Of a stretch of DNA of 19,613 bases, positions 2,886-19,613 are shown piece after piece. This DNA comes from Tissierellia bacterium. GTDB lineage: Bacteria; Bacillota; Clostridia; Tissierellales; Peptoniphilaceae. Every line of letters begins with the position of its first letter. The first letter of the stretch is position 1. A program made the position numbers and the translations under genes. Under the pieces are notes generated by a model. That model did no database searches and had not been told where the DNA came from. It was given only the letters and a program-made list of their open reading frames with translations. Location: positions 1-19,613 of the forward strand of contig JAAYNG010000096.1 in the NCBI GenBank assembly GCA_012520935.1, read 5' to 3'.

Positions 2886-2915
2886 ATGTAAACCATAATT
2901 GGTAGAAGTTTACAT
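2886..2915. promoter_or_regulatory. Candidate operator: inverted repeat ATGTAAAC-N14-GTTTACAT, with extra TGTAAAG half-sites at 2841 and 2866
   Basis: Perfect 8-bp inverted repeat seen directly. It lies about 40-110 bp upstream of the XRE regulator gene start. Confidence 0.4.
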
Positions 2916-2998
2916 GTCTTTATTTTAAACTTAAGGGCAAAGGGGGATTTATATATGGAACTATCTGAAAAAATTTTAATTTAAGAAAAAAGCAAGGA

Positions 2999-3580: not shown

Positions 3581-3600
3581 ATTTTTAATTTCTTAAAGAA

Positions 3601-3629
3601 TTGACTTTTATTCCTTATTAGTGTATATT
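3601..3629 (+). promoter_or_regulatory. Sigma-A type promoter (TTGACT-17-TATATT) for the small peptide + comEC transcript
   Basis: -35 TTGACT at 3601-3606, exact 17-bp spacer, -10 TATATT at 3624-3629. Confidence 0.5.
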
Positions 3630-3647
3630 CTTAACAGGGGTGTTATA

Positions 3648-3824
3648 ATGAGTATTAGTGATGCCATGATTCTGCTGGGAATTATTATTCTTATTTATAC
3701 ATTAAATAGGGTAGGTATTAATCGTCTTAGGCAACAAAAAAAAGAAGATAAAAAGTTTGAAGAATGGAAGATGAGGACACACACATGGGGGAGTAGGGAG
3801 AAAAGGGGAAAAAAAAGAAAATGA
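3648..3824 (+). CDS. Small membrane peptide (one TM helix plus a basic tail). Its stop overlaps the comEC start in an ATGA.
   Basis: RBS GGGGTG lies 6 nt before ATG 3648. The sequence MSISDAMILLGIIILIYTL is hydrophobic and the C-terminus is K/R-rich. The tracked ORF start at 3621 lacks an SD. Confidence 0.45.
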   Translation: MSISDAMILLGIIILIYTLNRVGINRLRQQKKEDKKFEEWKMRTHTWGSREKRGKKRK

Positions 3825-6106
3825 AGAAGACTCCTTTTCTATTTCCTTTTCTGGCAATTTCTATTTTAATTTTAATATTAAGCAACTTAAACATTAAGCT
3901 TTGGAGGGAATCTTCAAAGCTAATTTATATTGAGGGCAAGAAGGTCGAACTTGTTGGAGTGGTTGAGGAGGTAAAAAAGAGGAAGGATGAATATACCGGC
4001 TATGTCTTAAAGGCTAAAGACTTGGTCAAGGGGGACAGGTCTTTAAAGTTAAATGAAAATGTCTACTTGGCTGTAATTGGTGAAAGTGCCTATGACATAG
4101 GGGACATAATTAAGTTTAGGGAAATTGTAAAAGTTCCAGAAGAAAATACAAACCATGGTCTATTCAACTACCAAAGATACCTTAAGTCATCCTTTATTTA
4201 TACCACATATTCAGCAGACTCTTCTGCTGTTACAAAGGTTGGCAGAGATAATAGTTTGGGATACGGTCTTAAAAGGAGCTTTAGGTCCTATGTTGAAAGG
4301 GTAACTTACACTAATTTAGAAGAAGAAAATGCTGACCTTTTGTCTTCGGTTATTTTGGCAGACTATAACTATATTGATGACCAAGTATCTGAATCCTACA
4401 GAAAACTTGGCTTGTCACACCTTTTGGCAGTTTCTGGCCTACATATTGGAATAATAGTGGGACTTTTTGTTTTTATCCTTTCTAACCTTGGGGTAAAGAG
4501 GGAAGTCTTGACCACAATAACATTGGCAAGTCTTTGGCTTTATGCCTGTATTATAGGTTTTCCCCCATCTGTTGTAAGAGCTGCCATAATGACTAGCCTT
4601 ATGCTTATAGCCTTTCTTTTAAGAGAACCCTACAGCATGGAAAACTCTTGTTTTCTTGCTGGTTTCATAATTCTTTTTTTTAATCCCTATGAACTATTTA
4701 ACACTGGTTTTCAACTTTCTTTCGGGGCGACTTTATCCATAGCCTACCTTACAAGGCCATTGAAGAACTTGCTTTACCCTGCCAAGTCCTTTCTTGTGGA
4801 TGCTTTATATGCAACACTTGCTGTTCAAATTGGGATTTTTCCAATAGTAATCTACCACTATTCTTATTTTAATCCTGTAAATATTTTGACTAATTTAATA
4901 GTTACTCCCATCTTTACACTTGTCTTATGGTTGACCGTCTTACTGTTACTTGCCTTTCCAATTTTGGGTGCTGGAAACTTTTTAGGGACCATACTAGATT
5001 TTTTAGTAAGGTTTATGGAGACTTGGAATGATATTTTTGGTGTGGGTGAATTCTTAGGGAGGAACTATAAGGCTCCTGACCTTGAGGGATTTATTTTATA
5101 TTATGTAATCATATTTGTCTTTCTATTCTTAAGGAAGTATGGCAGGAAGGTTGATGGATTACTTCTTAAATTTACTGTGGTTTCACTTATAGCTACTATT
5201 GCAGTAACAATTGCCATAACAGACAGAAACGCATTAAACTTAACAATGATTCATGTAGGTCAAGGGGATGCTATTTTTCTTGAGGGTTATAGTAAGAAGA
5301 TTTTGATTGATACAGGTGGAAGTTATTTTACCGAAGATGAGGTAGCCAAGAGGATAACAATTCCTTTTTTAAAGAAGAGAGGGGTAAATAGGCTAGATAC
5401 TGTAATCCTCTCCCACTTTGATGGAGACCATGCAGCAGGAGTGGAAGCCATCTTAAGTGAATTTAAAGTTGATAGGTTTTTTATCCCATATGTTTCTGAT
5501 TCTAAGTATTATGATATAATTAGGGATAGTGGGGTTAAGACATACATTTCAAATGTTGGTGGAACCTATGCTTTTTCAGATAATTCTGGCCTAATAACTA
5601 TCTATCCCGATGGAGAAAGCCTGCCTGGCTATAAGAGGAAGGGGAACCTATCCACTGTCCAAGTCCTGAAACACTATAACAATACCATGCTTTTTACCGG
5701 CGACTTGGAAAAGGAAGATGAGTTAGAGATATTAAAAGTTTTAAAGCCAGTGGATGTCTTAAAGGTCGGTCACCATGGGTCAGACACATCAAGTTCAGAA
5801 AGATTTTTAGAGACCACAAAACCAAGATTGGCTTTGATATCTGTAGGCAGGGACAATGAATATGGCCATCCATCACAGGATGTGGTAGACAGGCTGGAAA
5901 GAATTGGTTCACTTATACTCCGTACAGATAGGGATGGGGAGATAAATTTAAAGTTTACAAAAGAGGGTATATATTATTCAACTTTTTATGGAAAGACCTT
6001 TGATTTTAAAGGTTTAGTTTGTTTCTTGCTAGCTGGTCTAGTTTTTGTATATCAGTTGATTTACTATATTAGGAGAAGAGATTATGGATTACAAGGACTT
6101 CATTAA
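3821..6106 (+). CDS. comEC: DNA internalisation competence protein ComEC/Rec2
   Basis: Polytopic N-terminal and competence domain, plus a C-terminal metallo-beta-lactamase domain with HVGQGDA, SHFDGDHAAG, VGHHGS and GHP motifs. Length 761 aa. Confidence 0.9.
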   Translation: MKKTPFLFPFLAISILILILSNLNIKLWRESSKLIYIEGKKVELVGVVEEVKKRKDEYTGYVLKAKDLVKGDRSLKLNENVYLAVIGESAYDIGDIIKFREIVKVPEENTNHGLFNYQRYLKSSFIYTTYSADSSAVTKVGRDNSLGYGLKRSFRSYVERVTYTNLEEENADLLSSVILADYNYIDDQVSESYRKLGLSHLLAVSGLHIGIIVGLFVFILSNLGVKREVLTTITLASLWLYACIIGFPPSVVRAAIMTSLMLIAFLLREPYSMENSCFLAGFIILFFNPYELFNTGFQLSFGATLSIAYLTRPLKNLLYPAKSFLVDALYATLAVQIGIFPIVIYHYSYFNPVNILTNLIVTPIFTLVLWLTVLLLLAFPILGAGNFLGTILDFLVRFMETWNDIFGVGEFLGRNYKAPDLEGFILYYVIIFVFLFLRKYGRKVDGLLLKFTVVSLIATIAVTIAITDRNALNLTMIHVGQGDAIFLEGYSKKILIDTGGSYFTEDEVAKRITIPFLKKRGVNRLDTVILSHFDGDHAAGVEAILSEFKVDRFFIPYVSDSKYYDIIRDSGVKTYISNVGGTYAFSDNSGLITIYPDGESLPGYKRKGNLSTVQVLKHYNNTMLFTGDLEKEDELEILKVLKPVDVLKVGHHGSDTSSSERFLETTKPRLALISVGRDNEYGHPSQDVVDRLERIGSLILRTDRDGEINLKFTKEGIYYSTFYGKTFDFKGLVCFLLAGLVFVYQLIYYIRRRDYGLQGLH

Positions 6107-7118
6107 GTACATAAGAGCAGGTTCACTTGGAAATTTCTACCTTTTTAAGGGAGAAGAAAAATACTTAATAGATAATACTTTGGGCATAGTTAAGGGAATT
6201 ATCCCAGAGGACTTTAGGGACTTTAATTTATATATACCAGATGTGGATGAGTTTTCTGTGGATGCTATGATGGACTTTATAAATAGGGCACCCTTATTCC
6301 ATGATAGGAAGCTCTTAATCATAAGGGATTTAAAGACTGCAAAAGACAATTCTAAGTCGGAATTATACGACAAGATACTAGAAGTAATACCGAAACTTAC
6401 TGACACAACATTAATAGGTGTGGACAGGGAGAATGCACTAGATAACAGGTTTAAATTGGTTAAATACGCAAAGGACCAAGGGGTCTTGGTGGAATTCAAG
6501 AGGGCAGACAATAAGGAGTTTGAAAGGTGGGTCCTGAAAAAGATTTCTGATAGCGGAAAAGAGATAAGTAGGGAAAACCTAAGGCTATTAGTCGATACTA
6601 CAGGCTATACTAAATATAGGAGTACAGTAGACCTCTATACAGTGGACAATGAATTGATGAAAGTGTTGAATTATGATGAGGGAAAGGAAGTCAGCAAAGA
6701 AGCCATAAGAGAGACTGTGACTGGTTATGTTGATGATAACATTTTTAAGTTATTGGAAGATATTTTTTCGGGCAATAAAAGGGCCATTGTATCTTTTAGA
6801 GAAATGGAGTCCGGCAGTGAGCCGATTTTTAAGATATGGCACATGGTCCTTCGTTGGGGGAGGCTGCTTTTTGAGATTAGGACCTTGAAGGAAGCCTTTC
6901 ATGCCGATGATGAAATTAGAAAGCGTTTATTTCTCTCGCCTTATGAATTTAAAAGGTTAGTCCCTATATCATCAAGACATACGGCTAATGAATGGAGGGA
7001 AGTTTTTAAAAGGCTTGAGAAAATTGACTATATGAATAAGTCTTCTGTCTTGGACTTAAAGGGTAAGATTGAAGAACTTATTGGCTTTATGATAGAAAAG
7101 AAGGAAGTTATGAGATGA
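6084..7118 (+). CDS. holA: DNA polymerase III delta subunit
   Basis: The N-terminus GNFYLFKGEEKYL is typical of HolA. Length about 340 aa. It sits in the conserved position immediately after comEC in Firmicutes, with rpsT divergent further on. Confidence 0.7.
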   Translation: MDYKDFIKYIRAGSLGNFYLFKGEEKYLIDNTLGIVKGIIPEDFRDFNLYIPDVDEFSVDAMMDFINRAPLFHDRKLLIIRDLKTAKDNSKSELYDKILEVIPKLTDTTLIGVDRENALDNRFKLVKYAKDQGVLVEFKRADNKEFERWVLKKISDSGKEISRENLRLLVDTTGYTKYRSTVDLYTVDNELMKVLNYDEGKEVSKEAIRETVTGYVDDNIFKLLEDIFSGNKRAIVSFREMESGSEPIFKIWHMVLRWGRLLFEIRTLKEAFHADDEIRKRLFLSPYEFKRLVPISSRHTANEWREVFKRLEKIDYMNKSSVLDLKGKIEELIGFMIEKKEVMR

Positions 7119-7212
7119 GTAATAAAAGAAGTATAAAAAGGGAAGGGGCCCATCCTTTGAGAAGTTTATTGGGTCGATAGTTGCGGTTGTATTTGGGATT
7201 TTTTGGACAGTA

Positions 7213-7578
7213 ATGGCCTTTAAATTGTCTTCTCCATTTAGAACAGAAATGAGTGATGGAGGTCCATTTGGAAATACTTTCTCTATTTTTGGCACAATTT
7301 TTCCTTTATTTGGAATAATATTTGTAATTTCAGGAATTGTTACTGCTGTAATAAGTTACAACAACGCATTTGGGAAAAATCGGTTTTCAGAATATGATAT
7401 AATGGATTCAGATGAAGAGGTTGACCCATTTCAAAAGTTTGTGGACAGCAGGGATGATGATTATATGGATGAAGAGGACAATGGCGATATAGGGGAGGCA
7501 AACTTCTGTCCAAACTGCGGGGCAAAAGCTGAAGGGGACTTTGAATACTGCCATAAGTGTGGGAGTAAACTACCTTAA
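7213..7578 (+). CDS. Small membrane protein with an acidic linker and a C-terminal zinc ribbon. The probable true start is ATG 7115, via a frameshift.
   Basis: C-terminal CPNCGAKAEGDFEYCHKCGSKL (CxxC-N10-CxxC). There is a TM helix after Met-1. Upstream in the same frame the reading is open and encodes a second TM helix (FIGSIVAVVFGIFWTV) with no start codon. ATG 7115 overlaps the holA stop (ATGA) and reads MSNKRSIKREG in the other frame up to a stop at 7178. Confidence 0.6.
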   Translation: MAFKLSSPFRTEMSDGGPFGNTFSIFGTIFPLFGIIFVISGIVTAVISYNNAFGKNRFSEYDIMDSDEEVDPFQKFVDSRDDDYMDEEDNGDIGEANFCPNCGAKAEGDFEYCHKCGSKLP

Positions 7579-7601
7579 GTTTAATGTCAAGGGAGGAACT
7601 T

Positions 7602-8855
7602 ATGAAAAAGTTTATCAATGGAAAAATTTACAAGAATGATGAAACTAGCGAAATTCTTGTAGAGAATGGAAAGATTGTCGAATTAGGAAAGAATCTAAAA
7701 GATGTTGATGAAATTATTGACTTGGGTGGAAAGTTGGTATGCCCGCCTTTTGTGGATTCCCACCTACACTTAGACTATGTTTATACTCTTTCAGAGATGG
7801 CAGAGACAGGTGCCAAGTCCGGTACCCTTTTTGAGGCTATTGAACTATGGCCTAAGTATAAGGAAAGTATGATGACTAGAGAAAGTGTAAAGCGTTTGGC
7901 TAAGAAGGGGATAATGGACGAGCTTAAACACGGAGTACAATATATAAAGACACATGTTGATGTAACAGATCCTAATTTCACTGGCTTAAAGGCTATGTTG
8001 GAGTTAAGGGAAGAATTAAAGGACAAGGTCTATATCCAAATTGTTTCCTTCCCGCAAAACGGTATGTATACTTACAAGGGCGGGGTAGACCTGGTGGAAG
8101 AAGGCTTAAAGATGGGGGCGGACTCTGTTGGCGGAATTCCTCACTATGAACCGGCTAGGGAGTTTGGGGAAAAGTCAATCCATGACATTGTGAAACTTGC
8201 TATGAAATATGATAAGCTAATTGATGTTCACTGCGACGAAACAGATGACCCTCAATCAAGATTTGTAGAGTTATTAAATGCCCTAGTCCTAATGGAAGAT
8301 TATGGAACAAGGACTACAGCTTCCCACACTTGCTCCTTTGGTTCAGACAATGACTCTTATGCATACAGGATGATAGACTTATTTAAGAAGTCAAAGATGA
8401 ACTTCACTTCACTACCGACAGAAAATGTATACCTTCAAGGAAGGCAGGACACATACCCTAAGCGAAGGGGTTTAACGAGGGTTAAGGAATTTATAGAAAA
8501 CGGAATAAATGTGGCATTTGGCCAGGATTCAATAAATGACCCATGGTATCCGGCAGGGAACGGAAACCACATGATAATTTTAGACCACGGAATACATTTA
8601 GCACAGATTATGTCAGCTGAAGACATGGAAAGAAACTTAGACCTAATCACATACAATGGGGCAAAGTGCTTAAATATTCAAGATGAATATGGTATAGAGG
8701 TTGGAAGGGCAGCAAACTTTATAGTCCTTGACGAGTATTCACCAGCTGAGGCTATAAGGAACAGGTCAGATGTTTTAATGTCGGTTAGAAATGGAGAATT
8801 CCTATTTAAGAGAAAGCCGGTTGAGTATGAAGTGGAATTGGATTTAGGTAGGTAA
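7602..8855 (+). CDS. codA: Cytosine deaminase
   Basis: Near-identical blocks to E. coli CodA: PPFVDSHLHLD, SGTLFEAIELW, THVDVTD, LKAMLE, IDVHCDETDDPQSRFVE, TYPKRRGLTRVKE. RBS GGGAGG lies 5 nt before ATG 7602. The tracked start at 7584 is an alternative. Confidence 0.9.
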   Translation: MKKFINGKIYKNDETSEILVENGKIVELGKNLKDVDEIIDLGGKLVCPPFVDSHLHLDYVYTLSEMAETGAKSGTLFEAIELWPKYKESMMTRESVKRLAKKGIMDELKHGVQYIKTHVDVTDPNFTGLKAMLELREELKDKVYIQIVSFPQNGMYTYKGGVDLVEEGLKMGADSVGGIPHYEPAREFGEKSIHDIVKLAMKYDKLIDVHCDETDDPQSRFVELLNALVLMEDYGTRTTASHTCSFGSDNDSYAYRMIDLFKKSKMNFTSLPTENVYLQGRQDTYPKRRGLTRVKEFIENGINVAFGQDSINDPWYPAGNGNHMIILDHGIHLAQIMSAEDMERNLDLITYNGAKCLNIQDEYGIEVGRAANFIVLDEYSPAEAIRNRSDVLMSVRNGEFLFKRKPVEYEVELDLGR

Positions 8856-8859
8856 TTGA

Positions 8860-10041
8860 ATGGCAGATAGTAGACAGAATAATGAAATTTTTGAGTGGAA
8901 ATACTTCCTACTACTCTCAACTGTGCCCTTCTTTGCAGTTCTCACGGAACTTGCACCCACAGGCGTCTTAAGTTCAATTGCCGGAGACCTTAATGTGGAC
9001 ATTGCTAAGGCAGGTAGTCTTGTGGGACACTACGCCTTGGCAGCGGCGATTTTCGGAATACCCCTTATAGCTGCCAGCGTTACTATGGATAGGAAAAAAC
9101 TTTTAATGATGATATTGTTCGCCCTAGGTATATTTAATTTAATAGTTGCTTTTTCCACAAATTTCACCTTGACCCATATAGCCAGGTTTTTGTCGGGCCT
9201 TAGTGCAGGTGTAATGTGGCCAATGATAGTTGCTTATGGTGTAAAGATGACTTCTAAAAATCATGGAGGAAGGGCTGTTGCAGTTATTATGGCAGGCTCA
9301 ACTATTGGTATGAGCCTTGGAATTCCATTATTTACACTTGTTGCAAAGTTATTTGGCTGGAGGGCAGAATTTTACCTAATGGGTGGGCTAATCCTATTAG
9401 ACATGTTATTAATAGGAAAAATTCTACCCAGTGTACCAGGAGAGGAAAGAACAGAGTCGAATTCACTCCCTATGATTATTAAAAACAAGGGGGTCTTGAC
9501 TGTAATGTTAATTACTACTTTAGTTATTATAGCCAATTATGGGGTGTATGTGTATATTGAAAGGATGGTAGATAGTTTTAAGCTTTCCGGAGGCATAAGT
9601 CTTGCCCAGTTGTGTTTTGGAGCCGGCTCACTGGTATCGGTTATATTGGTCACTAAATTAATAGACGGCCATTTATACGGATTGCTAGTAGGACTTTTTT
9701 CTCTGGGAGTCTTGTCCCTATTATCTTTTAGGATTTTTAGAGGGACAGCTCTTGTTGCCCACCTGAGTTTCGCAGCTTGGGGGATGTCCTATAGCTCCGT
9801 ATCAACACTTCTTCAGGCGGTAGTGTCAAAACAAGTATCCAAAGGAAGGGATATAGCCACTTCTTTACAATCGGCCATGTTTAATTTGTCTATTTTGATT
9901 GGAACACATTTCAGTGGTTTTATCCTAACAGAAACAGGCGGAGATATTAATCCGGTTATCCTTATGGGGATAGTATTTTTGACAGGGGGAACGATTGTTG
10001 CAATATTAAGTAGGAAGATAATAGAAAGGGACCCGGCATAG
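8860..10041 (+). CDS. MFS transporter (12 TM, DHA1-like)
   Basis: Twelve hydrophobic segments and an MFS-type TM1 motif (ELAPTGVLSSIAGDL). It starts 5 nt after the codA stop. Confidence 0.75.
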   Translation: MADSRQNNEIFEWKYFLLLSTVPFFAVLTELAPTGVLSSIAGDLNVDIAKAGSLVGHYALAAAIFGIPLIAASVTMDRKKLLMMILFALGIFNLIVAFSTNFTLTHIARFLSGLSAGVMWPMIVAYGVKMTSKNHGGRAVAVIMAGSTIGMSLGIPLFTLVAKLFGWRAEFYLMGGLILLDMLLIGKILPSVPGEERTESNSLPMIIKNKGVLTVMLITTLVIIANYGVYVYIERMVDSFKLSGGISLAQLCFGAGSLVSVILVTKLIDGHLYGLLVGLFSLGVLSLLSFRIFRGTALVAHLSFAAWGMSYSSVSTLLQAVVSKQVSKGRDIATSLQSAMFNLSILIGTHFSGFILTETGGDINPVILMGIVFLTGGTIVAILSRKIIERDPA

Positions 10042-10052
10042 GGTAATATAAA

Positions 10053-10092
10053 AAGCTTATCTCCAACAAAGTCCTATGTTAGAGATAAGCTT
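10053..10092. terminator. Bidirectional terminator between the convergent MFS gene and lipoprotein gene
   Basis: Perfect 11-bp inverted repeat AAGCTTATCTC ... GAGATAAGCTT flanked by A/T runs on both sides. Confidence 0.6.
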
Positions 10093-10171
10093 TAATTAAT
10101 ATCTATTTGCCATAATTTTCTTTCATATAAGCAGCCCATTCATCATAGGAATTCTTCTCATCCTTCATTTT

Positions 10172-10816
10172 TTAATATAGGTTTCTGACTTGAATATCGT
10201 ATATTTGTCCCAGCTCTAAGATATCTGCATCCTTATCTACAAGGCTTCCGTCAAAGGAAACTTCCACAATATTACTAGGCAGTCCTTCTGTGGTAATAGT
10301 TTTACCGTCAAGGGAGTGGTTTAGGTTTTCTATACTTAAGGACACTAACTTATCTTCTTGATTTTTAAAAATATATTGGAACTCTTCCGGAATAGACCTT
10401 ATTTCAACAATTAGCTCATCTTCCCTCGTTTCAACAATAACTCCTACAAAGTGAGCCACATCTTCAGTCGGTCCATCGTAGCTGATGGCAATGCTTCTGA
10501 AAATAAACCATCGACCGTCTATTTTAACATTTATTCTCGAAGGCTTTCCCTTCTTATACTCATAGCCCTTTCCAAAGTTGGATTCATTATCTTTTTTAGG
10601 ATCTTCAGACCCTTTCACTGTACTTTCTATTTTACCGTCGGGACTATCCCAAGTGATATTGCTGTTTACATATCCGGTATCCACATACAATTGTCCGTCT
10701 ACCATTACCATAGGGGGCAAGTCGGAAGGGACTTCGCCCTTGTCCTTAGCACAAGCTGTTATTATTAAGGTGCTGGCAAGTAACAAGGTAAGTAATAATA
10801 TTTTTTTATTTTTCAC
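10172..10816 (-). CDS. Hypothetical lipoprotein. The start is assigned to a GTG with an SD, not the upstream ATG.
   Basis: The minus strand reads GGAGAG, 6 nt, then GTG AAA AAT AAA AAA. That gives VKNKKILLLTLLLASTLIITAC, a signal peptide with an ITAC lipobox. The tracked ATG at 10846 would place the SD inside the coding sequence. Confidence 0.65.
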   Translation of the reverse strand: MKNKKILLLTLLLASTLIITACAKDKGEVPSDLPPMVMVDGQLYVDTGYVNSNITWDSPDGKIESTVKGSEDPKKDNESNFGKGYEYKKGKPSRINVKIDGRWFIFRSIAISYDGPTEDVAHFVGVIVETREDELIVEIRSIPEEFQYIFKNQEDKLVSLSIENLNHSLDGKTITTEGLPSNIVEVSFDGSLVDKDADILELGQIYDIQVRNLY

Positions 10817-10844
10817 AAGTATCTCTCCAATTAACATAAATAAC

Positions 10845-10869
10845 AAAAAAACCGCAGTTAGGCGGTTTT
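10845..10869 (-). terminator. rpsT rho-independent terminator. The stop codon sits in the hairpin loop.
   Basis: On the minus strand: AAAACCGC-CTAACT-GCGGTTTT followed by a T-run. The TAA stop lies in the loop. Confidence 0.7.
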
Positions 10870-11130
10870 CATTGCTTTATTCAGCTTTAATTGTAGTCTT
10901 CCGAGTTTTCTTGAAGCAGCATTCTTATGAATGACATTCTTATCCGCTGCCTTCTTAAGCTTTTTGTCAACTTTTTTAAGGGCTTCCTTAGCCTCGTCGA
11001 ACTTGCCTTCGTTAAGAAGAGCTTCAAAACGCTTAATATATGTTTTCATTTCAGACTTTCTCGCCTTATTCCTAAGAGTTTTCTTTTCAGTAACAAGAAT
11101 TCTTTTCTTTGCAGATTTTATATTCGCCAA
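10858..11130 (-). CDS. rpsT: 30S ribosomal protein S20
   Basis: MANIKSAKKRILVTEKKTLRNKARKS... is a canonical bS20 sequence. TTG start, with RBS GGGAGGTG 6 nt upstream. Confidence 0.9.
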   Translation of the reverse strand: MANIKSAKKRILVTEKKTLRNKARKSEMKTYIKRFEALLNEGKFDEAKEALKKVDKKLKKAADKNVIHKNAASRKLGRLQLKLNKAMKTA

Positions 11131-11161
11131 TCATTTCACCTCCCGTATAATCACAACGAAG

Positions 11162-11190
11162 ATTTTAACATAAAATTGAACAGATTGCAA
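11162..11190 (-). promoter_or_regulatory. rpsT promoter (minus strand: TTGCAA-17-TAAAAT)
   Basis: Reverse complement of 11185-11190 is TTGCAA. Reverse complement of 11162-11167 is TAAAAT. Spacer is 17 bp. Confidence 0.5.
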
Positions 11191-11226
11191 GTAGAATTTA
11201 TTTTTAGATAAAATATGTTTTTCCTC

Positions 11227-11255
11227 TTGACAAGTTAACTCTTTTAGACTATAAT
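11227..11255 (+). promoter_or_regulatory. Consensus sigma-A promoter TTGACA-17-TATAAT driving the T-box leader and ABC operon
   Basis: Perfect -35 (11227-11232) and -10 (11250-11255) hexamers with a 17-bp spacer. Confidence 0.7.
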
Positions 11256-11261
11256 GCTTTA

Positions 11262-11516
11262 AATCATACTAAAGAGTTGATAAAGGGTAGTAGTTAAGAT
11301 AGGTTCGTCCAAGAGAGCGGCGTTTGGTGGGATGTCGTATGAAGGTCTTAATGAATGGGCTTTTGATTGCAAACCGAAATAATAGTAGGCTTTGACGGAA
11401 TTCGAAACGTTATATTCGAGGCACATATGTGCAAAGTGGGCTATTTTATATAGTCAATTTAGGTGGCACCGCAGGTACTCCTGTCCTATTTTTTATATGG
11501 GATTGGGAGTTTTTTT
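11262..11516 (+). promoter_or_regulatory. T-box riboswitch leader, apparent specifier UGG (Trp)
   Basis: Conserved T-box sequence AATTTAGGTGGCACCGCAGG at 11456-11475, with a 7-nt UGGCACC bulge in a foldable antiterminator (11460-11488). A mutually exclusive terminator hairpin (11477-11510) is followed by T7. Stem I elements: AGAGAG bulge at 11312-11317, distal loop GGCGUUUGGUGGGA. The specifier loop has GUAGUAG opposite UGAAUGGG (GAA-UGG-G at 11353-11359). Confidence 0.7.
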
Positions 11517-11542
11517 ATTTCAAAATTTAGGGGGATGTTATT

Positions 11543-12508
11543 ATGAAGAAGTTATTTATTTTGTTTTTAGGACTTATTATTTTAATAGGTTGTGGGCAGG
11601 TAGATGAAGGAAGTGGAACTAGCAAGAAGAAGGTAGGTATTGTTCAGTTTGCTGAACACCCATCCTTGACAAACTGCACAAATGGATTTATTGAAGGCAT
11701 AAAGGAAGCCTATGGAGAGAATCTTGAAATAGATTTGAAGAACGCAACAGGTGAAGGGCAAAATGCAGCCCTAATTACAGACCAGTTTGTTTCAAAGAAA
11801 TATGACTTAGTGTGTGCAGTTGCCACCCCTGCAGCCATGTCAGCCTTTAATAGTTCTGACGGAATAGTCCCTGTGGTTTTCTCAGCAGTTTCTGACCCCG
11901 TTGCAGCAGGTTTGGTAGAAAGCCTTGAAAGTCCAGGTACAAACTGTACTGGGACAAGTGATACCTTGCCAATTGATACCCAACTTCAACTTATAAAGGA
12001 TTTAGTTCCAAATGCAAGCAAGATAGGTATACTATACACAACAAGTGAGGTAAACTCTCAAACTAACCTTAAGAGGATGGAAGAGTCCAGTCAAAAGTTT
12101 GGCTTTGAAATCATACCTATTGGTATTAATAACGCAGATGAAATTCCAATGGCAACCGATGCTCTTTTGAAAAAAGTTGATGTAATTACTATGCTCACAG
12201 ATAATAAGGTTGTGGATAACCTAAAACTTATTACAGACAAGGCTAGGGCTGCTGGTGTCCCTGTCTTTGGGTCTGAAGAGGAACAATTAAATTCCGGCTG
12301 TGTGGCAGCTATGAATATAAATTATTTTGACCTTGGAGTTGAAACCGGAAAGATAGGTGCGGAACTTTTGAAGGGAAAGGATGCAAAGGAGATTCCAGTT
12401 ATGGTTATCGACTCTGCCAACCCTGTATTAAATCCCGCCATTATCTCAGAGTATGGTCTTGAGATACCGGAAGCTTTAAAAGAAGCTAAAACCTACGGAG
12501 GGGAATAG
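11543..12508 (+). CDS. ABC transporter substrate-binding lipoprotein (ABC_sub_bind / COG2984 family)
   Basis: Signal peptide with LIGC lipobox. The VGIVQFAEHPSL...GFIEGIKE N-terminal block is typical of this family. Confidence 0.75.
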   Translation: MKKLFILFLGLIILIGCGQVDEGSGTSKKKVGIVQFAEHPSLTNCTNGFIEGIKEAYGENLEIDLKNATGEGQNAALITDQFVSKKYDLVCAVATPAAMSAFNSSDGIVPVVFSAVSDPVAAGLVESLESPGTNCTGTSDTLPIDTQLQLIKDLVPNASKIGILYTTSEVNSQTNLKRMEESSQKFGFEIIPIGINNADEIPMATDALLKKVDVITMLTDNKVVDNLKLITDKARAAGVPVFGSEEEQLNSGCVAAMNINYFDLGVETGKIGAELLKGKDAKEIPVMVIDSANPVLNPAIISEYGLEIPEALKEAKTYGGE

Positions 12509-12509
12509 G

Positions 12510-13409
12510 ATGGATGTTGTTTTTTCTTTACTTCTAACAGTTCTGGAAGAGGCTTTTATATATTCCTTTTTAAGCTTGGGAATTTATATAAGCTATATAA
12601 TACTCAACTTTCCAGACCTGTCTGTAGATGGGACATTTCCTTTGGGAGGGGCAGTAACTGCCATCTTGTTGCTGGCAGGTTGGAACCCTTTGCTTGTATT
12701 GGTCTTGGCCTTTATTGCTGGTAGTCTGTGTGGAATTTTAACAGGAATCTTCCATACTAAATTTAAAATCAAGGACCTACTTTCCGGCATTATTACCATG
12801 ACAGGCTTGTATTCTGTGAATTTACTCATAGCAGGCTCTGCCAATGTTTCTATAATGAATACTAAGACTGTTTTCAACTCAGGTTTAGGAAGTCTACTTC
12901 CCGAAAGTCTAAAGGAATATAATATAGTTATAATAGCTTTTTTATTGTTGATTATTGTAAAGCTTATACTAGACCTATTTTTAAAGACAGAGGCAGGACT
13001 TATCCTAAGGGCTAGTGGAGACAACAAGAGGGTGGTTACATCCTTAGGCAAAAACCCTGGCAGTGTAATTATTTTTGGTCTAGCTTTGACAAATGGACTT
13101 GCAGCCCTTTCAGGTGCTATCCTAGTCCAAGCCCATGGCTATTTTAATGTAAATAGTGGTATAGGGATGATGGTGGCAGGACTCACCTGTATGATTATAG
13201 GCAACTCACTCTTTAAGGGGCTTTCTTTTATAAAGATAAGTACAATGGCGATATTGGGGACAATAATTTATAAGGCCTTGATATCTTTAGCCTTTAACTT
13301 AGGTGCTCCACCAAACACTTTAAAATTAATAAATGCAATTATATTTTTAGTAGTCTTAGTCGCAAGAGAGAAGTCAGCAAGGCAGACTTATATCAGGGGT
13401 GAACTATGA
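12510..13409 (+). CDS. ABC transporter permease (BPD_transp_2 / COG4120-like)
   Basis: Polytopic membrane protein immediately downstream of the binding-protein gene, with an 8-10 TM pattern. Confidence 0.7.
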   Translation: MDVVFSLLLTVLEEAFIYSFLSLGIYISYIILNFPDLSVDGTFPLGGAVTAILLLAGWNPLLVLVLAFIAGSLCGILTGIFHTKFKIKDLLSGIITMTGLYSVNLLIAGSANVSIMNTKTVFNSGLGSLLPESLKEYNIVIIAFLLLIIVKLILDLFLKTEAGLILRASGDNKRVVTSLGKNPGSVIIFGLALTNGLAALSGAILVQAHGYFNVNSGIGMMVAGLTCMIIGNSLFKGLSFIKISTMAILGTIIYKALISLAFNLGAPPNTLKLINAIIFLVVLVAREKSARQTYIRGEL

Positions 13410-14182
13410 TAGAATTAAGAAATATTTATAAGGCTTTTAATAAGGGGACAGTAGATGAGATTAATATATTTGAAGATTTTAACTTCAAATTAGATGAAGG
13501 GGACTTTGTAAGTGTCATTGGGTCCAACGGGTCTGGCAAGTCTACCTTATTAAATCTAATTTCCGGGAGTGTATATCCAGATAGTGGTCAGGTTTTAAAA
13601 AATGGAGAGGATATAAGTTTACTGGAAGAATATAAGAGGTCAGCTTCTATTATGAGGATTTTTCAAGACCCTTCTCTTTCGGGGAGTCCAAAACTTACAA
13701 TATTAGAAAATCTTGCCCTATATGATTCTAAGGCTAGGAATTTTTCTTTAAGACCAGCCATTAAAAAGAATAGGTTGGATGAATATAAGGAGATGCTTTC
13801 TCGTTTGGGAATGGGACTAGAAGACAGGTTACATGACAAGCTTGCAAGTCTTTCAGGAGGTCAGAGGCAGGCTCTAATGCTTGTCCTAGCTAAGTTATCA
13901 GGGGATGGGGTTTTACTTTTAGATGAACATACAGCAGCCCTTGACCCTAAGGCTGCAGAAACTGTGATGGGATTGACAAATCAGTTGATAAAAGAACTAA
14001 AGCTTTCTGTGGTTATGGTTACCCATAATTTAAAACATGCCTTATCTTATGGTAACCGCCTAGTGATGCTCCATAAAGGGAAATATATTTATAATACAGA
14101 AAACCATGTTGGTAAATTAAAAATGGATGAGGTGTTAAATAAGTTTTACGAAACAAGTATAGAAGTTGGAAATAGCGTTTGA
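13406..14182 (+). CDS. ABC transporter ATP-binding protein (COG1101-like)
   Basis: Walker A GSNGSGKST, signature LSGGQRQ, Walker B LLLDEHTAALD. 4-nt overlap with the permease gene. Confidence 0.85.
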   Translation: MIELRNIYKAFNKGTVDEINIFEDFNFKLDEGDFVSVIGSNGSGKSTLLNLISGSVYPDSGQVLKNGEDISLLEEYKRSASIMRIFQDPSLSGSPKLTILENLALYDSKARNFSLRPAIKKNRLDEYKEMLSRLGMGLEDRLHDKLASLSGGQRQALMLVLAKLSGDGVLLLDEHTAALDPKAAETVMGLTNQLIKELKLSVVMVTHNLKHALSYGNRLVMLHKGKYIYNTENHVGKLKMDEVLNKFYETSIEVGNSV

Positions 14183-14200
14183 ATTTTCAAACGCTATTTT
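14171..14200. terminator. Bidirectional terminator (near-perfect 13-bp palindrome) between the ABC operon and the convergent DUF1858 gene
   Basis: AATAGCGTTTGAA-TT-TTCAAACGCTATT, followed by TTTT on the + strand and preceded by A-rich sequence. Confidence 0.65.
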
Positions 14201-14208
14201 GAAAAAGT

Positions 14209-14415
14209 CTATTTTTCAGAGCTTACTTTGTCTTTAAGTTCCTTGACTAACTTTTCGTAGTCTATCCCATGCTTAGATGTAAAGTCTCCTAACTTATCAA
14301 AAAGATTATTACACATTACACATTTACCAACGACCTCGTCATAGGGTTTAAAAACTATTTCTGTTTCTGGATGTTCAGATACGATATCCAGTATAACACT
14401 CTCCTTATTAAACAT
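14209..14415 (-). CDS. DUF1858-type small redox-disulfide protein (hybrid-cluster-protein-associated family)
   Basis: 68 aa with a CxxC pair (CVMC) and an I.DI....P....VF N-terminus typical of DUF1858. RBS AAGGAGG on the minus strand. Confidence 0.55.
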   Translation of the reverse strand: MFNKESVILDIVSEHPETEIVFKPYDEVVGKCVMCNNLFDKLGDFTSKHGIDYEKLVKELKDKVSSEK

Positions 14416-14437
14416 TTTTTCCTCCTTATAAAGGTGG

Positions 14438-14459
14438 CGACCATGTTAATTGATGGTCG
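14438..14459. promoter_or_regulatory. Inverted repeat CGACCAT-N8-ATGGTCG between the promoter region and the RBS of the DUF1858 gene (candidate operator)
   Basis: 7-bp perfect inverted repeat seen directly, located 15-35 bp upstream of the minus-strand start codon. Confidence 0.3.
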
Positions 14460-14815
14460 GCTAAATATCATTTGAGTAACATCAACAATACTATCTTTTC
14501 TTTCCAAATAACAGGGAAAGGACAAATAAAACTATAAAGATAAAAAACAAATTAGCTATGGAAGTTGCAGCTCCTGCTATGCCACCAAAGCCAAAAATTG
14601 CAGCTATTATTGCTATTATTATAAATATTATTGAATACCTTAACCTATACTTACCTCCTCAATTTGTATTTACTAGATTAGTCTTATGATACCCGAATAA
14701 TTAAAGTTAAACGAAAAAATATTTAAAGGATAAAATAAATATTTAATAAATTTATCAATTTATGATTAATTTGACTGTGCAATAGTGTATAATAGTAAAA
14801 AAAGGAGGGATAATA

Positions 14816-16030
14816 ATGGGAATTATTAAAGCTGTAACAGGAGCTGTGGGTGGAGCCTTAGCTGACCAGTGGCTAGATGCCTTTGAAGCCTATGATATGG
14901 GACCAAGCACAGTCTTTACTTATGGGGCACCAATTAGAAACGACAAGAGGAGTTCAAATACAAAAGGAACAAGCGACTATATTACAGATGGGTCTAAAAT
15001 CCATGTTGGACCTAATCAATTTATGATGCTATTAGATGGTGGTAGGGTCGTAGACTATACTGCAGAGGAAGGTTATTATACTGTAGATATGAAAACTCAA
15101 CCATCTCTCTTTAATGGCGACTTTGGCGATGCAATAAAAGAGTCCTTTGAGAGGATTAAGTTTGGAGGTGGGACTCCGACTAAGCAACAAGTTTTTTACA
15201 TCAACCTTCAAGAAATTAAGAACATAAAATTCGGGACTGCAAATCCACTAAATTATTTTGACGACTTCTATAATGCGGAGTTGTTCTTAAGAACTTTTGG
15301 AGACTATTCTATAAGGATTACCGACCCTTTGAAATTTTTCAGAGAAGTGGTTCCAAGAAATGCTAACAAGGTAGACATAGATGAAATTGACGACCAATTC
15401 TATTCGGAATTTATGACTGCCCTACAATCTACAATGAACAAGATGTCTGCAGATGGCTTTAGGATTTCCCATGTTTCTTCAAGGGGACAGGAGTTATCTG
15501 ACTATATGAGTCAGGCACTTGATGAAAAGTGGATGGACCTTAGGGGCTTTGAAATTGTTTCTGTAGGTATTACAAGTATTTCTTATGACGACGAGTCTAA
15601 GGAATTAATAAACATGAGGAACAAGGGGGCTATGCTGGGAGACCCTAGCGTTCGAGAGGGTTATGTTCAAGGCTCTATAGCCAGAGGCTTGGAAGCTGCC
15701 GGTTCCAATGAAGGCGGAGCAACAGGTGCCTTTATAGGTATGGGCATGGGTATGCAGAATGCCGGCTCATATATGGCTGGCGTATCACAAGTGAATCAAC
15801 AACAAATGCAGGCCCAACAACAAGCCCAACAACAGGCGCAAAGTCAACAGGTGCAAGGTCAAGCCGGTGGGTGGAAGTGTACAGAGTGCGGAACATCTAA
15901 TTCAGGTAAATTCTGTACTAACTGTGGTGCAAAGGCTCCTGAAGTTTCTGCATCTAAATTCTGTTCAAATTGTGGAACAAAACTTGGAGAAGGGGCTAAG
16001 TTCTGTACTGAATGTGGAACTAAACTATAG
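14816..16030 (+). CDS. SPFH/Band-7 family protein (Band_7_1 type, YdjI-like) with a Q-rich linker and a C-terminal double zinc ribbon
   Basis: The N-terminus MGIIKAVTGAVGGALADQW is characteristic of the Band_7_1 SPFH family. C-terminus: CTECG...CTNCG and CSNCG...CTECG, two CxxC-N7-10-CxxC ribbons. Strong RBS AAGGAGGG. Confidence 0.75.
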   Translation: MGIIKAVTGAVGGALADQWLDAFEAYDMGPSTVFTYGAPIRNDKRSSNTKGTSDYITDGSKIHVGPNQFMMLLDGGRVVDYTAEEGYYTVDMKTQPSLFNGDFGDAIKESFERIKFGGGTPTKQQVFYINLQEIKNIKFGTANPLNYFDDFYNAELFLRTFGDYSIRITDPLKFFREVVPRNANKVDIDEIDDQFYSEFMTALQSTMNKMSADGFRISHVSSRGQELSDYMSQALDEKWMDLRGFEIVSVGITSISYDDESKELINMRNKGAMLGDPSVREGYVQGSIARGLEAAGSNEGGATGAFIGMGMGMQNAGSYMAGVSQVNQQQMQAQQQAQQQAQSQQVQGQAGGWKCTECGTSNSGKFCTNCGAKAPEVSASKFCSNCGTKLGEGAKFCTECGTKL

Positions 16031-16038
16031 GTGATGCT

Positions 16039-17094
16039 ATGTCTTCTGTAGATCAATATAAATGTATTTCTTGCGGGGCTCCAATATTTTTTAAGCCCGA
16101 AGTAGGGAAATTTAAGTGCGATTACTGCAATTCAGAATACACCGAAGAGGAACTTACCGCTTATTTAGAGAGTCTGAAGGAAGGCAAGGAAACAAAAGAA
16201 GAAACAAGGGGAGAAACATCTGGTGAATACCAACAGTATCACTGCAATAACTGTGGGGCTGAAGTGGTTTCAGATACTGAAACCACTGCAACCTTCTGTT
16301 ATTACTGCCATTCGCCGGTTATAATATCATCAAGGCTTTCAGGTGAATTTAAGCCTGAGAGGATTGTTCCTTTTAAAGTATCCAAGGATAAGGCTGTAGA
16401 AATCTTCTTAGACTGGGCTGGAGGCAAAAAGTATGTGCCGAATGACTTTGGAAAGAAAGAACATATAGATAAGATGACAGGTATTTATATTCCATACTGG
16501 TCCTATGATGTTGTTTTAGATGTTGATTACCAAGCCATTGGCGAGAATGTAAGTGTTTGGACAAGTGGAGATGTGGAATATACAAACACTAAGCAGTATT
16601 CCATTGTAAGGTCAGGGGACATGGAATTTAACAACATTGATGAGCTGGCCACAGATAAGTTTGAAGAGAGGTTATTAAATGGAATTTCTCCTTATGAAGA
16701 GGATTCTGAAGTGGAATTTTCTAAAGGCTACCTGTCAGGTTTTTTTGCAGAGTCTTTCAATGTAGACCGTGATGCCTGCATGCCGGATGTGGAGGAAAGA
16801 GTGAAAAACTATTCCAGCAACTTGCTGGCTGATGCAACCGGAAACTACTCCAGGGTAAAGGTGGAGAGGGATAACCGAAATATTAAGAAGGCTGAGGAAC
16901 AATATGCCCTGTATCCGGCATGGATACTCACATATAACTTTAATGGCAAGATTTATGTGTTTGCAATCAATGGGCAAACAGGCAAGGCCTTTGGTGAACT
17001 GCCTGTTGATAACGGGAAGCTATATAGGACAACAGGAATAATATTTGCAATAATAGCCGTCCTTCTTGTGTTGGGAGGTTTGTTCATATGGTAA
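16039..17094 (+). CDS. Double zinc-ribbon protein with a C-terminal TM anchor (YdjG-like partner)
   Basis: N-terminal CISCG...CDYC and CNNCG...CYYC ribbons, a central soluble domain, and a C-terminal hydrophobic helix IIFAIIAVLLVLGGLFIW. It starts 8 nt after the SPFH gene. Confidence 0.65.
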   Translation: MSSVDQYKCISCGAPIFFKPEVGKFKCDYCNSEYTEEELTAYLESLKEGKETKEETRGETSGEYQQYHCNNCGAEVVSDTETTATFCYYCHSPVIISSRLSGEFKPERIVPFKVSKDKAVEIFLDWAGGKKYVPNDFGKKEHIDKMTGIYIPYWSYDVVLDVDYQAIGENVSVWTSGDVEYTNTKQYSIVRSGDMEFNNIDELATDKFEERLLNGISPYEEDSEVEFSKGYLSGFFAESFNVDRDACMPDVEERVKNYSSNLLADATGNYSRVKVERDNRNIKKAEEQYALYPAWILTYNFNGKIYVFAINGQTGKAFGELPVDNGKLYRTTGIIFAIIAVLLVLGGLFIW

Positions 17095-17852
17095 AAAGAA
17101 TAATAATATTAATAATGCTTGTTTTATTATTAAGCCTGCCATCAATTGCCAATGCCGAAGTTGACCATCTTGTTTTCTTGGATGGAAACCAAGAAAAGTA
17201 CATGACTGATAAGGAAGCCAATGAGTTTAGGACTAGGTTGGAAGAGATTTCAGATAAGCATAATGCAGACTTTGTAATAATTTTCAAGGAAAATGTTGGT
17301 AACGCTCAAAGTTATGCAGAACAATACTATGTAAACAATAATCTAGGCAGGGGACCTAACAAAGACGGGGTTATTCTTCTAATAAATATGGCCGGCGGTC
17401 CCGGCAATAGGGATATTTATATTGCAACCCATGGCATATCTAAAGATTATATTACAGATAAAAAAATAGATAAACTATTGGATGTCCTAATTGACAATGG
17501 GCTGGGGGACTATATTTACTATGAGCCGATATCAGCCTATATTAAAAATTTGGATAAGCTTCATAGGGGGAACTATGTAAGCCCTCTTGATGCCTTGATA
17601 TCTGCAGTGGCAGGTTTATTTGCATCCGGTGGCTATGCTGCAAAGGTAAAGAGAGAATATAAGGCCTCCAATCCTTCAAAACAATATAGGATGGCCTCTA
17701 ATGCTATAGCAAACTATGCAAGTGAAAGTGACAACTTTATAAGAGAATATACTACATCAAGAACTATACCAAAGCCTTCAAGCTCAAGTTCAAGTGGCGG
17801 TGGAGGTAGTAGCGGCGGGTCAAGTTTTGGTGGTGGAGGAAGAAAGTTCTGA
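17088..17852 (+). CDS. TPM-domain (TLP18.3/Psb32/MOLO-1 phosphatase-like) membrane protein with a Gly/Ser-rich tail
   Basis: Signal peptide, then a TPM core (DFVIIFKENVG...GVILLINMAGGPGNRDIYIATHGIS), a TM helix, and an SSSSSSGGGGSSGGSSFGGGG tail. The ATG overlaps the upstream stop (ATGGTAA). Confidence 0.75.
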   Translation: MVKRIIILIMLVLLLSLPSIANAEVDHLVFLDGNQEKYMTDKEANEFRTRLEEISDKHNADFVIIFKENVGNAQSYAEQYYVNNNLGRGPNKDGVILLINMAGGPGNRDIYIATHGISKDYITDKKIDKLLDVLIDNGLGDYIYYEPISAYIKNLDKLHRGNYVSPLDALISAVAGLFASGGYAAKVKREYKASNPSKQYRMASNAIANYASESDNFIREYTTSRTIPKPSSSSSSGGGGSSGGSSFGGGGRKF

Positions 17853-17853
17853 T

Positions 17854-18579
17854 ATGTATAAAGACTTTTCAAAAGTATATGACTTATTGATGTGGGATTA
17901 TGACTATGAAAAATGGTCTGAATATTATAAAGAAATTTTTGAAAGCTTTTCAATTGCACCGGAAACGATATTAGAAGTGGGTGCAGGAACAGGGTCTATG
18001 ACTGAAGTACTCTCTAGAGATTATAGGGAAGTAGTGGCCATAGACCCTTCTCCTGCCATGCTTACACTTGCAAGGGAAAAGCTATTTGATGCTCGTAATG
18101 TTAGATTTTTATTAAAGGACATAAGGGACTTTGAGATTGAAAAAAAGTTTGATGCCTGTGTCGCTGCCTGTGATGTCATGAACTATATGCTCACAAAAGA
18201 GGATTTTATTTTAGCCTTAAAAAATGTAAGGGGAGCTTTGAGGGAAGGTGGACTTTTCTTATTTGATATGAGTTCATATTATAAGCTCTCTGAAATGCTT
18301 GGAGATAACACCTTTATTCACGATACTGAAGATATTTATTATGTCTTTCAGGGAGAATTTGCAGGGGATACAGAACATATAGACTTGAATATTTTTATTA
18401 AAGAAGGGGATTTTTATAAAAGATATTCAGAGGTGCAAAGTATGAGAGCTTACAAGATAAAAGAGGTGCTTTCGATGGTAGACCAAGCTGGCTTTAGAGA
18501 ATTTGAAGCCCTTGCCCCTTTTTCTTTTAGCAGGCCAAAAGAGGTTACTGAAAGGATTTTATTTTTAGGGCGTAAATAG
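17854..18579 (+). CDS. Class I SAM-dependent methyltransferase
   Basis: Motif I ILEVGAGTGSMT, acidic motif II VVAIDPS, and a post-I ACDVMNY. It starts 1 nt after the TPM stop. The tracked upstream extension to 17794 overlaps the TPM gene in another frame. Confidence 0.75.
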   Translation: MYKDFSKVYDLLMWDYDYEKWSEYYKEIFESFSIAPETILEVGAGTGSMTEVLSRDYREVVAIDPSPAMLTLAREKLFDARNVRFLLKDIRDFEIEKKFDACVAACDVMNYMLTKEDFILALKNVRGALREGGLFLFDMSSYYKLSEMLGDNTFIHDTEDIYYVFQGEFAGDTEHIDLNIFIKEGDFYKRYSEVQSMRAYKIKEVLSMVDQAGFREFEALAPFSFSRPKEVTERILFLGRK

Positions 18580-18685
18580 GGGAGCATTTGAATTTTTAGA
18601 GGAGAGTTAATAGGGAAAGCTTTCAAAACTAGATGGTCGAAGCGTGACAAATTTATGTTCATTAATCGTAATCTTTGAAGAGTTG

Positions 18686-18714
18686 TTGACTCAATGACTT
18701 TAATATGTTAAAAT
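18686..18714 (+). promoter_or_regulatory. Sigma-A type promoter TTGACT-17-TAAAAT, flanked by direct repeats (T)(G/C)AAAGAGTTG at 18675-18685 and 18735-18745
   Basis: Hexamers and spacer counted directly. The repeat copies match at 9 of 11 positions. Confidence 0.5.
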
Positions 18715-18772
18715 GCTCAATGTTCAACTAATATTCAAAGAGTTGAAAATACCATTATGAGGGAGAAATTTC

Positions 18773-19613
18773 ATGAACACACTGATTAGTGTCGATAACA
18801 CTTGGGCTTTGTGGGCAGTTTTAACTGTTGCAGCAGCAGCGGCAATTTATTTAGAGCAGAAATATGACTGGGCGAATAAGGTAACAGGGACTATTATAGC
18901 CTTAGTTATCGTTATGGCATTATCTAACTTAAGAATTATCCCTACGGATGCACCAGTCTATGACATAGTTTGGGCCTATGTGGTCCCTTTAGCGGTTCCC
19001 ATGCTATTGTTTAATGCAAATGTAAAAAAAATCGCTAAAGAATCAGGCAGGATGTTATTAATGTTTACACTTAGTAGCTTGGGTACCTTATTAGGTTCAT
19101 TTATTGCATTTTATGCTCTTAGGAAATTTATTCCACAGATAGAGATAATTATGCCTATGTTTACAGGAACCTATATAGGTGGAAGTGTAAACCTTGTTGC
19201 AATGGCAGATGCATATAATGTACCTGGAGAAATAACATCAGCAGCAATTGTTGCAGACAACCTTCTAATGGCAATATATTTCTTTATTTTGATTGCTTTG
19301 CCCAGCATAAAACCTATAGCAAAATATTTTTCAAGACCGTATATTGAAGAGTTTGAAAAAAATTTTGATGCAAATTCAAAAGAAACACAGGCAGCAAAAC
19401 ATTGGACAGCAAAACCTATTGCACTATTAGATATTGCTCTAGTTGTAGCTATTTCATTTACAATAGTTACAGTTTCAACAGGGCTAGGAGACCTTTTATC
19501 AGCAGTTATTCCTACAAGCAATTTCTTCTTTCAATTGTTAAATGGTATGCTGGGGAGCAAGTATTTGCTAATGGCTACAATTACAATGATATTAGCATCT
19601 GTTTTTGCAGAGC
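18773..19613 (+). CDS. DUF819 (YjcL-like) polytopic membrane protein, truncated by the window end
   Basis: RBS GAGGGAG lies 7 nt before ATG 18773. The frame stays open to the end of the window and shows multiple hydrophobic helices. The minus-strand ORF 19171-19521 is its antisense shadow. Confidence 0.65.
   Translation, partial: MNTLISVDNTWALWAVLTVAAAAAIYLEQKYDWANKVTGTIIALVIVMALSNLRIIPTDAPVYDIVWAYVVPLAVPMLLFNANVKKIAKESGRMLLMFTLSSLGTLLGSFIAFYALRKFIPQIEIIMPMFTGTYIGGSVNLVAMADAYNVPGEITSAAIVADNLLMAIYFFILIALPSIKPIAKYFSRPYIEEFEKNFDANSKETQAAKHWTAKPIALLDIALVVAISFTIVTVSTGLGDLLSAVIPTSNFFFQLLNGMLGSKYLLMATITMILASVFAE

Follow-up and report, generated by a model that had tools for sequence, protein, structure and literature searches.

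Tryptophan importers of the trpXYZ type, composed of a substrate-binding lipoprotein, a permease, and an ATPase, were reportedly predicted by comparative genomics (by Panina in 2003 and Vitreschak in 2008), and the comparative T-box study of Vitreschak et al. in 2008 is said to have given them their name. In Streptococcus suis, trpX shares a transcript with the permease and ATPase genes; low tryptophan induces it, growth under that condition requires it, and mutations in Stem I, in the UGG specifier, or in the UGGC bulge abolish the induction (PMC9382623). Among relatives with solved structures, CD0873 (PDB 6HNI) binds tyrosine, its sole ligand among 20 amino acids assayed, VC_1101 (3LKV) binds phenylalanine, and SP1069 of S. 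pneumoniae (3LFT) binds tryptophan (PMC6816091). Here we analyze a 19,613-nucleotide (nt) stretch of an uncultured Tissierellia genome (contig JAAYNG010000096.1, positions 1 to 19,613; hereafter the window, whose numbering is used throughout), and argue that it carries a transcriptional T-box that senses tRNA-Trp and controls a three-gene, trpXYZ-type ATP-binding cassette (ABC) importer of binding lipoprotein, permease, and ATPase, a reading to which we assign a probability of roughly 0.85. Judging by its regulation, the importer most probably takes up tryptophan.

The Rfam T-box model RF00230 matched 11268-11491 on the plus strand over its full length (model positions 1-219 of 219) with a score of 120.7 bits (E 1.1e-26), against a gathering score of 93 bits, while a permissive Rfam rescan of the entire window returned no second RNA family at E <= 0.1. 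Upstream of the match lies a promoter sequence agreeing with the consensus at 12 of 12 positions, the sole exact occurrence of TTGACA-17-TATAAT in the 19.6-kb window (shuffled sequences give an expectation of 0.02). Counted from the -10 box, the leader ends with the U-tract after about 255 nt, and a complete 5' untranslated region of about 280 nt precedes the ATG at 11543. The S-turn (GGUAGUA / GAA-UGG-G), the AGAGA bulge, and the distal loop of Stem I are all present, and by every criterion that can be applied to its sequence the leader is a member of RF00230. Its features, all on the plus strand, are as follows.

11227-11255 (+): predicted promoter of the sigma-A/sigma-70 type (TTGACA 11227-11232, 17-nt spacer, TATAAT 11250-11255), with a putative function in transcribing the operon
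11274-11368 (+): T-box Stem I, from the Rfam model alignment, with the same helices from RNAalifold on 56 leaders
11278-11280 (+): UGA, marking the Stem I basal helix with its GA/K-turn-type internal loop
11286-11292 and 11353-11359 (+): Stem I specifier loop, 5' side GGUAGUA and 3' side GAAUGGG
11356-11358 (+): specifier codon UGG (Trp), followed by G11359
within 11274-11368 (+): upper part of Stem I, comprising the upper helices, AG bulge, and distal loop
11312-11316 (+): AG bulge AGAGA, matching the RF00230 AGAGA consensus and invariant in 56 of 56 aligned leaders
11322-11332 (+): Stem I distal loop, GUUUGGUGGGA
11369-11394 (+): Stem II, with GAA/AGUA S-turn-type motifs, aligned to RF00230 with high posterior probability
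11396-11409 (+): Stem IIA/B region, likewise aligned with high posterior probability
11439-11455 (+): Stem III hairpin, from the Rfam model alignment
11460-11488 (+): antiterminator helix, from the same alignment, with the 7-nt bulge UGGCACC at 11464-11470
11461-11475 (+): conserved T-box sequence AGGUGGCACCGCAGG, the 5' half of the antiterminator in the model alignment
11464-11467 (+): UGGC, predicted from the T-box mechanism to pair with the 3' end (G73-C-C-A) of uncharged tRNA
11477-11516 (+): intrinsic terminator, stem 11477-11489 / 11497-11510 with a 7-nt loop, and U7 at 11510-11516
11529-11535 (+): Shine-Dalgarno sequence AGGGGGA, read from the sequence, 7 nt before the ATG at 11543

In solved T-box structures, the AG bulge and distal loop form a platform that touches the tRNA elbow. 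An earlier note on this DNA had proposed the consensus sigma-A promoter, the leader of about 255 nt, the canonical T-box sequence, an antiterminator with a UGGC bulge, a competing terminator with U7, the Stem I bulge, and UGG as the specifier; each of these was recovered at the positions given above, and the covariance-model search that it suggested returned the RF00230 match. It had placed the system at 11227-12508, and while the elements do lie where it put them, the operon runs on to 14182.

The identity of the specifier depends on the register of the loop, which was taken from the model alignment and from the covarying helix that closes it. In that alignment CUUU 11360-11363 pairs with AAAG 11282-11285 to form the closing helix, CUUAAU 11347-11352 pairs with GUUAAG 11293-11298 in the upper helix, and GAA-UGG-G (11353-11359) sits unpaired between the two. 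As aligned, this order of S-turn GAA, codon, one nucleotide, and closing helix is the canonical register, and the codon is therefore read as UGG at 11356-11358. The earlier note had also raised an alternative, in which the specifier is GGU (glycine) within GAAGGUC (11341-11347) and the leader senses tRNA-Gly. A string resembling GAA-NNN-purine is indeed present there, 12 nt upstream of GAAUGGG, but the model alignment places AAGGU in an internal loop between two upper helices, away from the basal helix, the GAAGGUC columns vary freely across orthologs, and tRNA-Gly, with U73, would need UGGA and not UGGC under the established T-box covariation rule. To our knowledge, the transporter family also has no link to glycine. 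The glycine specifier was rejected for its wrong structural register and unconserved columns, and we regard the chance that it is correct as negligible.

Conservation of the UGG codon was assessed in related operons. A scan of the genome collection using the single binding protein returned no relatives; an alignment of 26 similarity-selected homologs was needed instead, and led to 80 genome loci whose binding-protein gene is related (41-51% identical), from sources including Lachnospiraceae, Oscillospiraceae, Peptococcaceae, Christensenellaceae, and Tissierellia. A full-length Rfam T-box lies directly upstream of the binding-protein gene in 55 of the 80, and all 55 leaders carry GAA-UGG-N at the same place (one with CAA for GAA). 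Stem I regions of 56 leaders were aligned using MAFFT, giving invariant AAUGG columns, and the alignment then served to build a Stem I covariance model, which identified 19 further leaders, with UGG in the specifier columns of 19/19. Sixteen of these are in loci missed by Rfam or broken by contig ends; the remainder belong to Desulforamulus reducens and the two closest relatives (54-55% identity). UGG thus occupies the specifier position in 75 of 75 leaders (74 related leaders, 55 from Rfam and 19 from our own model, plus the window) with no other codon found, among relatives that are 41-55% identical and represent several Bacillota orders, and 71 of the 80 genome loci carry a UGG T-box leader. 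The earlier note had named conservation across orthologous leaders as a check on its specifier, and all 74 bear it out.

The alignment also provides support for the Stem I helices. RNAalifold, given the 56-leader alignment alone, produced the same five helices, with compensatory changes in 16 of 19 pairs. Stem I cells were paired in 94.8% of cases, compared with 77.5% in shuffled controls and 36-46% after sliding the 3' partners by 1-3 columns, and the covariation score was 0.555 (controls <= 0.093). Compensatory exchange extends to the closing helix that fixes the register, both at pair 15:102 (AU 41, UA 10, GC 3, CG 1) and at pair 16:101 (AU 51, GC 4, GU 1).

At the 3' end of the leader, the antiterminator and terminator helices are mutually exclusive, positions 11477-11488 being common to both. 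Folded as isolated hairpins, the terminator reaches -13.8 kcal/mol and the antiterminator -7.1 kcal/mol, and the 91-nt segment 11430-11520, which includes the terminator hairpin, folds at -25.4 kcal/mol (z -3.1). Such an energy gap is typical of T-boxes, whose antiterminator prevails only with the help of tRNA; orthologous leaders also show terminators with U-runs at the equivalent place. A strong U7 terminator positioned exactly to compete with the antiterminator, together with a Shine-Dalgarno sequence that begins 13 nt past the U-tract and outside the switch helices, makes it very improbable that the leader is a decayed, non-functional T-box remnant or controls translation instead of transcription termination. 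The consensus promoter and the full-length Rfam match, well over threshold and with every conserved motif intact, argue in the same direction. In favor of a remnant or translational device are the basal helix, which is GA/UU in the window, a weaker pairing than the CC/GG found in nearly all orthologs, and the score of 77 bits for the window, the lowest among full-length matches to our own Stem I model.

Discriminator base G73 is a major identity element in bacterial tRNA-Trp (PMC12135181). The C of the UGGC bulge in the window could form a Watson-Crick pair with G73; the organism's own tRNA is not within the window. At the variable position of the UGGN bulge, which in locus L008 lies around 2725, the window and 7 orthologs have C and approximately 49 of the 55 orthologs have U; UGGU with bacterial G73 would give a U-G wobble in most orthologs.

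From this arrangement we infer tRNA binding and switching of the following kind. Transcription would start about 7 nt after the promoter at 11227-11255, and the nascent Stem I would dock tRNA-Trp by pairing UGG 11356-11358 with the CCA anticodon and by setting the platform of AG bulge and distal loop against the tRNA elbow. An uncharged tRNA would pair through its free 3' end (G73-C-C-A) with UGGC 11464-11467 and stabilize the weak antiterminator at 11460-11488, permitting read-through into the operon. A charged tRNA would leave the bulge unpaired, in which case the more stable terminator at 11477-11516 would form and transcription would stop. The importer would be made when charging of tRNA-Trp falls.

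The genes following the leader are arranged in the order binding protein, permease, and ATPase, an order also found in loci L088-L090.

11543-12508 (+): substrate-binding lipoprotein of 321 amino acids (aa), in the TrpX position; PF04392/COG2984 (PF04392 E 4e-73), lipobox LIGC with Cys17
12510-13409 (+): ABC permease of 299 aa, in the TrpY position; PF02653 (E 2e-25), after a 2-nt gap from the binding-protein stop
13406-14182 (+): ABC ATPase of 258 aa, in the TrpZ position; PF00005 (E 2e-27), its start overlapping the permease stop by 4 nt
14171-14198 (+): AT-rich 12-bp hairpin across the ATPase stop codon (-14.2 kcal/mol), a putative terminator

The hairpin at 14171-14198, which faces a convergent small open reading frame (ORF), is probably the end of the operon; having few G-C pairs, it was not flagged by the terminator scan. 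The convergent ORF (14209-14415, minus strand) encodes 68 aa with a weak, below-cut-off match to TIGR03980 (hybrid-cluster-protein-associated redox disulfide domain). The databases contain one identical binding protein, from a Tissierellia metagenome-assembled genome (MAG); beyond it, identity drops to 53-55% in the nearest proteins, indicating that the lineage is thinly sampled. The relatives of the binding protein in the PDB are 6HNI, 3LKV, and 3LFT (E 1e-61 to 1e-50). No tryptophan biosynthesis genes are present in the window.

In five related loci a tetrahydrofolate (THF) riboswitch lies a few hundred bases past the expected end of the importer operon, approximately 2.8-3.2 kb beyond the binding-protein start; it is absent from the window. 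The five loci come from two Bacillota MAGs, a third, unclassified Bacillota MAG, Herbinix, and Mobilitalea, and the riboswitches are located as follows.

L008, 6195-6291: THF riboswitch
L012, 3629-3725: THF riboswitch
L023, 5830-5926: THF riboswitch
L025, 3432-3529: THF riboswitch
L030, 5900-5997: THF riboswitch

Several results weigh against a tRNA-Trp T-box driving a tryptophan importer, and concern the RNA as well as the protein. Minimum-free-energy folding of Stem I alone or of the whole leader did not recover the canonical Stem I fold and performed no better than shuffles (z approximately -1.1). The computational fold of Stem I that the earlier note called for was thus obtained from RNAalifold on the 56 leaders but not from the single sequence, and the structure rests on the covariance model and on covariation. 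The window contains no tRNA gene, and hence no tRNA-Trp anticodon or discriminator with which to compare the leader; the two tRNAs found in related loci are Val and Leu. The binding protein scored 262.1 bits against the NCBIfam TrpX equivalog NF041285, below its cut-off of 390, and shares just 35-37% identity with all three solved relatives, tyrosine and phenylalanine binders included. Finally, in ungapped HMMER stretches its Glu245 and Tyr261 align with Glu263 and Tyr279 of CD0873, where SP1069 has Ala and Gln.

The last point matters because of a published rule for ligand choice. Bradshaw et al. ascribed the choice to two positions, occupied by Glu263/Tyr279 in CD0873, Ala246/Tyr262 in VC_1101, and Ala268/Gln284 in SP1069, and proposed that the Tyr sterically shuts out tryptophan while the Glu bonds the tyrosine hydroxyl (PMC6816091). 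Among the 26 homologs of the window protein Glu245 is invariant and Tyr261 nearly so. The Glu/Tyr pair also occurs in all 80 loci, with one Phe for Tyr, but one of the two peptide patterns behind these loci includes Glu245 and biases the set towards Glu, so that the invariance of Glu245 is taken from the 26-homolog set. The residues that hold the amino acid backbone are kept as T95, A115, S117, D140, and N221 (T108, A127, T129, D152, and N233 in S. suis) and are invariant in the clade, S117 being Ser for Thr as in CD0873. Approximately 20 positions are fixed differently in the window clade and the CD0873 clade, for example Phe113/Ile, Phe242/Ile, Glu247/Gly, and Cys253/Ala. The earlier note had assigned the operon to the predicted tryptophan-transporter family, an assignment that stands at the Pfam and COG level and in the trpXYZ gene layout, and fails at the TrpX cut-off and at the Ala/Gln pocket pair.

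It must therefore be considered whether the T-box senses tRNA-Trp while the transporter itself is not tryptophan-specific, but carries tyrosine or aromatic amino acids generally. The pair that defines the tyrosine binder, its near-invariance within a T-box-regulated clade, and the unmet TrpX cut-off all favor such a transporter. On the other hand, 75 of 75 clade leaders carry UGG and none a Tyr or Phe codon, which is hard to explain unless the operon serves tryptophan supply. The two-residue rule derives from three structures only, any of the approximately 20 clade-specific positions could reshape the pocket, and we suggest that the Glu carboxylate could also accept the indole N-H. A search of six CD0873-clade loci for a Tyr-specifier T-box with which to calibrate the pocket rule, using Rfam and our own Stem I model, found no T-box, making that calibration impossible; these loci also differ in gene order, which suggests that their clade is regulated differently. 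On balance, we consider a transporter with a wider or another aromatic specificity unlikely.

The unanimous UGG codon is the stronger evidence on the purpose of the operon, and tryptophan is accordingly kept as the likeliest substrate. It is important to note that, given the Glu/Tyr pair and the sub-cut-off TrpX score, this assignment rests on regulation and not on the binding pocket. A more tentative proposition, possible though on the doubtful side, is that the conflict is genuine: either this Clostridia/Tissierellia clade binds tryptophan by a second, undescribed pocket solution and the two-residue rule fails, or a tryptophan-sensing switch runs a transporter with another main substrate.

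The CD0873-type loci that were read (L081, L083, L084, L085, L086, and L087) have the order permease, ATPase, binding protein in five of six cases. In L085 no permease or ATPase gene is adjacent, and a c-di-GMP-I riboswitch lies nearby at 4966-5043 (minus strand); L086 contains three PF04392 genes, two of them adjacent.

The remainder of the window includes comEC (3821-6106), holA (6084-7118), and rpsT (10858-11130, minus strand), a content in keeping with the Bacillota origin to which the protein match to the Tissierellia MAG points. Downstream of rpsT lies a 224-aa ORF (10172-10846, minus strand) with no Pfam match and a sub-threshold NCBIfam match alone, the two being separated by a bidirectional, terminator-like hairpin at 10847-10870. 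A single 216-aa ORF at 1963-2613 (plus strand) combines a HicA toxin domain (residues 6-63) with a HicB-like antitoxin domain (79-143); it represents a toxin-antitoxin fusion or else two genes joined in error. Near 14515-14650 (minus strand) is a frame for a small hydrophobic peptide, resembling DUF1328/UPF0391, without an ATG, GTG, or TTG start and with AGG where ATG is expected; either a pseudogene or an assembly error may account for this. A three-gene cluster at 14816-17852 (plus strand) encodes a 404-aa SPFH/Band-7 protein that ends in zinc ribbons at its C-terminus, a 351-aa protein without family, and a TPM-domain protein; for the methyltransferase ORF that comes next, the listed GTG start gives a 59-nt overlap with the preceding gene.

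The analysis links an operon of an uncultured Tissierellia genome, generically annotated as "ABC transporter substrate-binding protein", to tRNA-Trp charging as its regulatory signal and to tryptophan as its probable substrate, and the same assignment extends to at least 70 related operons across Bacillota. The control itself is of the textbook T-box kind, and nothing is added to a mechanism that is already known. The sole addition is that the regulatory signal disagrees with the published pocket rule across a whole clade. Since a two-residue rule drawn from three crystal structures conflicts here with regulatory evidence, substrate predictions in this family should not lean on the rule alone.

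Compared with canonical transcriptional T-boxes (RF00230; tyrS and glyQS of B. subtilis), the leader shows no structural difference; what differs is the specifier, UGG, and the genes regulated. The best-scoring solved relative of the binding protein is CD0873 of C. difficile (PDB 6HNI; 210 bits, 37% identity), a lipoprotein of the same family with the same Glu/Tyr pair. CD0873 binds tyrosine, whereas the window operon appears to be wired to tRNA-Trp, and the six CD0873-clade loci, none of which encodes the CD0873 sequence itself (the closest is 95% identical), lack a T-box and place the binding-protein gene after the permease and ATPase genes in five of six cases. With respect to the tryptophan systems, the window protein is approximately 35% identical to that of S. 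pneumoniae, and Tyr261 is replaced by Gln in the streptococcal binding proteins and Glu245 by Ala in SP1069. The S. suis leader is also longer (461 nt with a U4 tract, compared with about 255 nt and U7 in the window). Induction by tryptophan limitation has been demonstrated in S. suis only, with a T-box trpXYZ also predicted for S. pneumoniae. The S. suis trpXYZ operon nevertheless shares with the window a T-box leader followed by binding protein, permease, and ATPase genes in that order, a PF04392-family binding protein, UGG in Stem I, UGGC in the antiterminator bulge, and terminator-based control.

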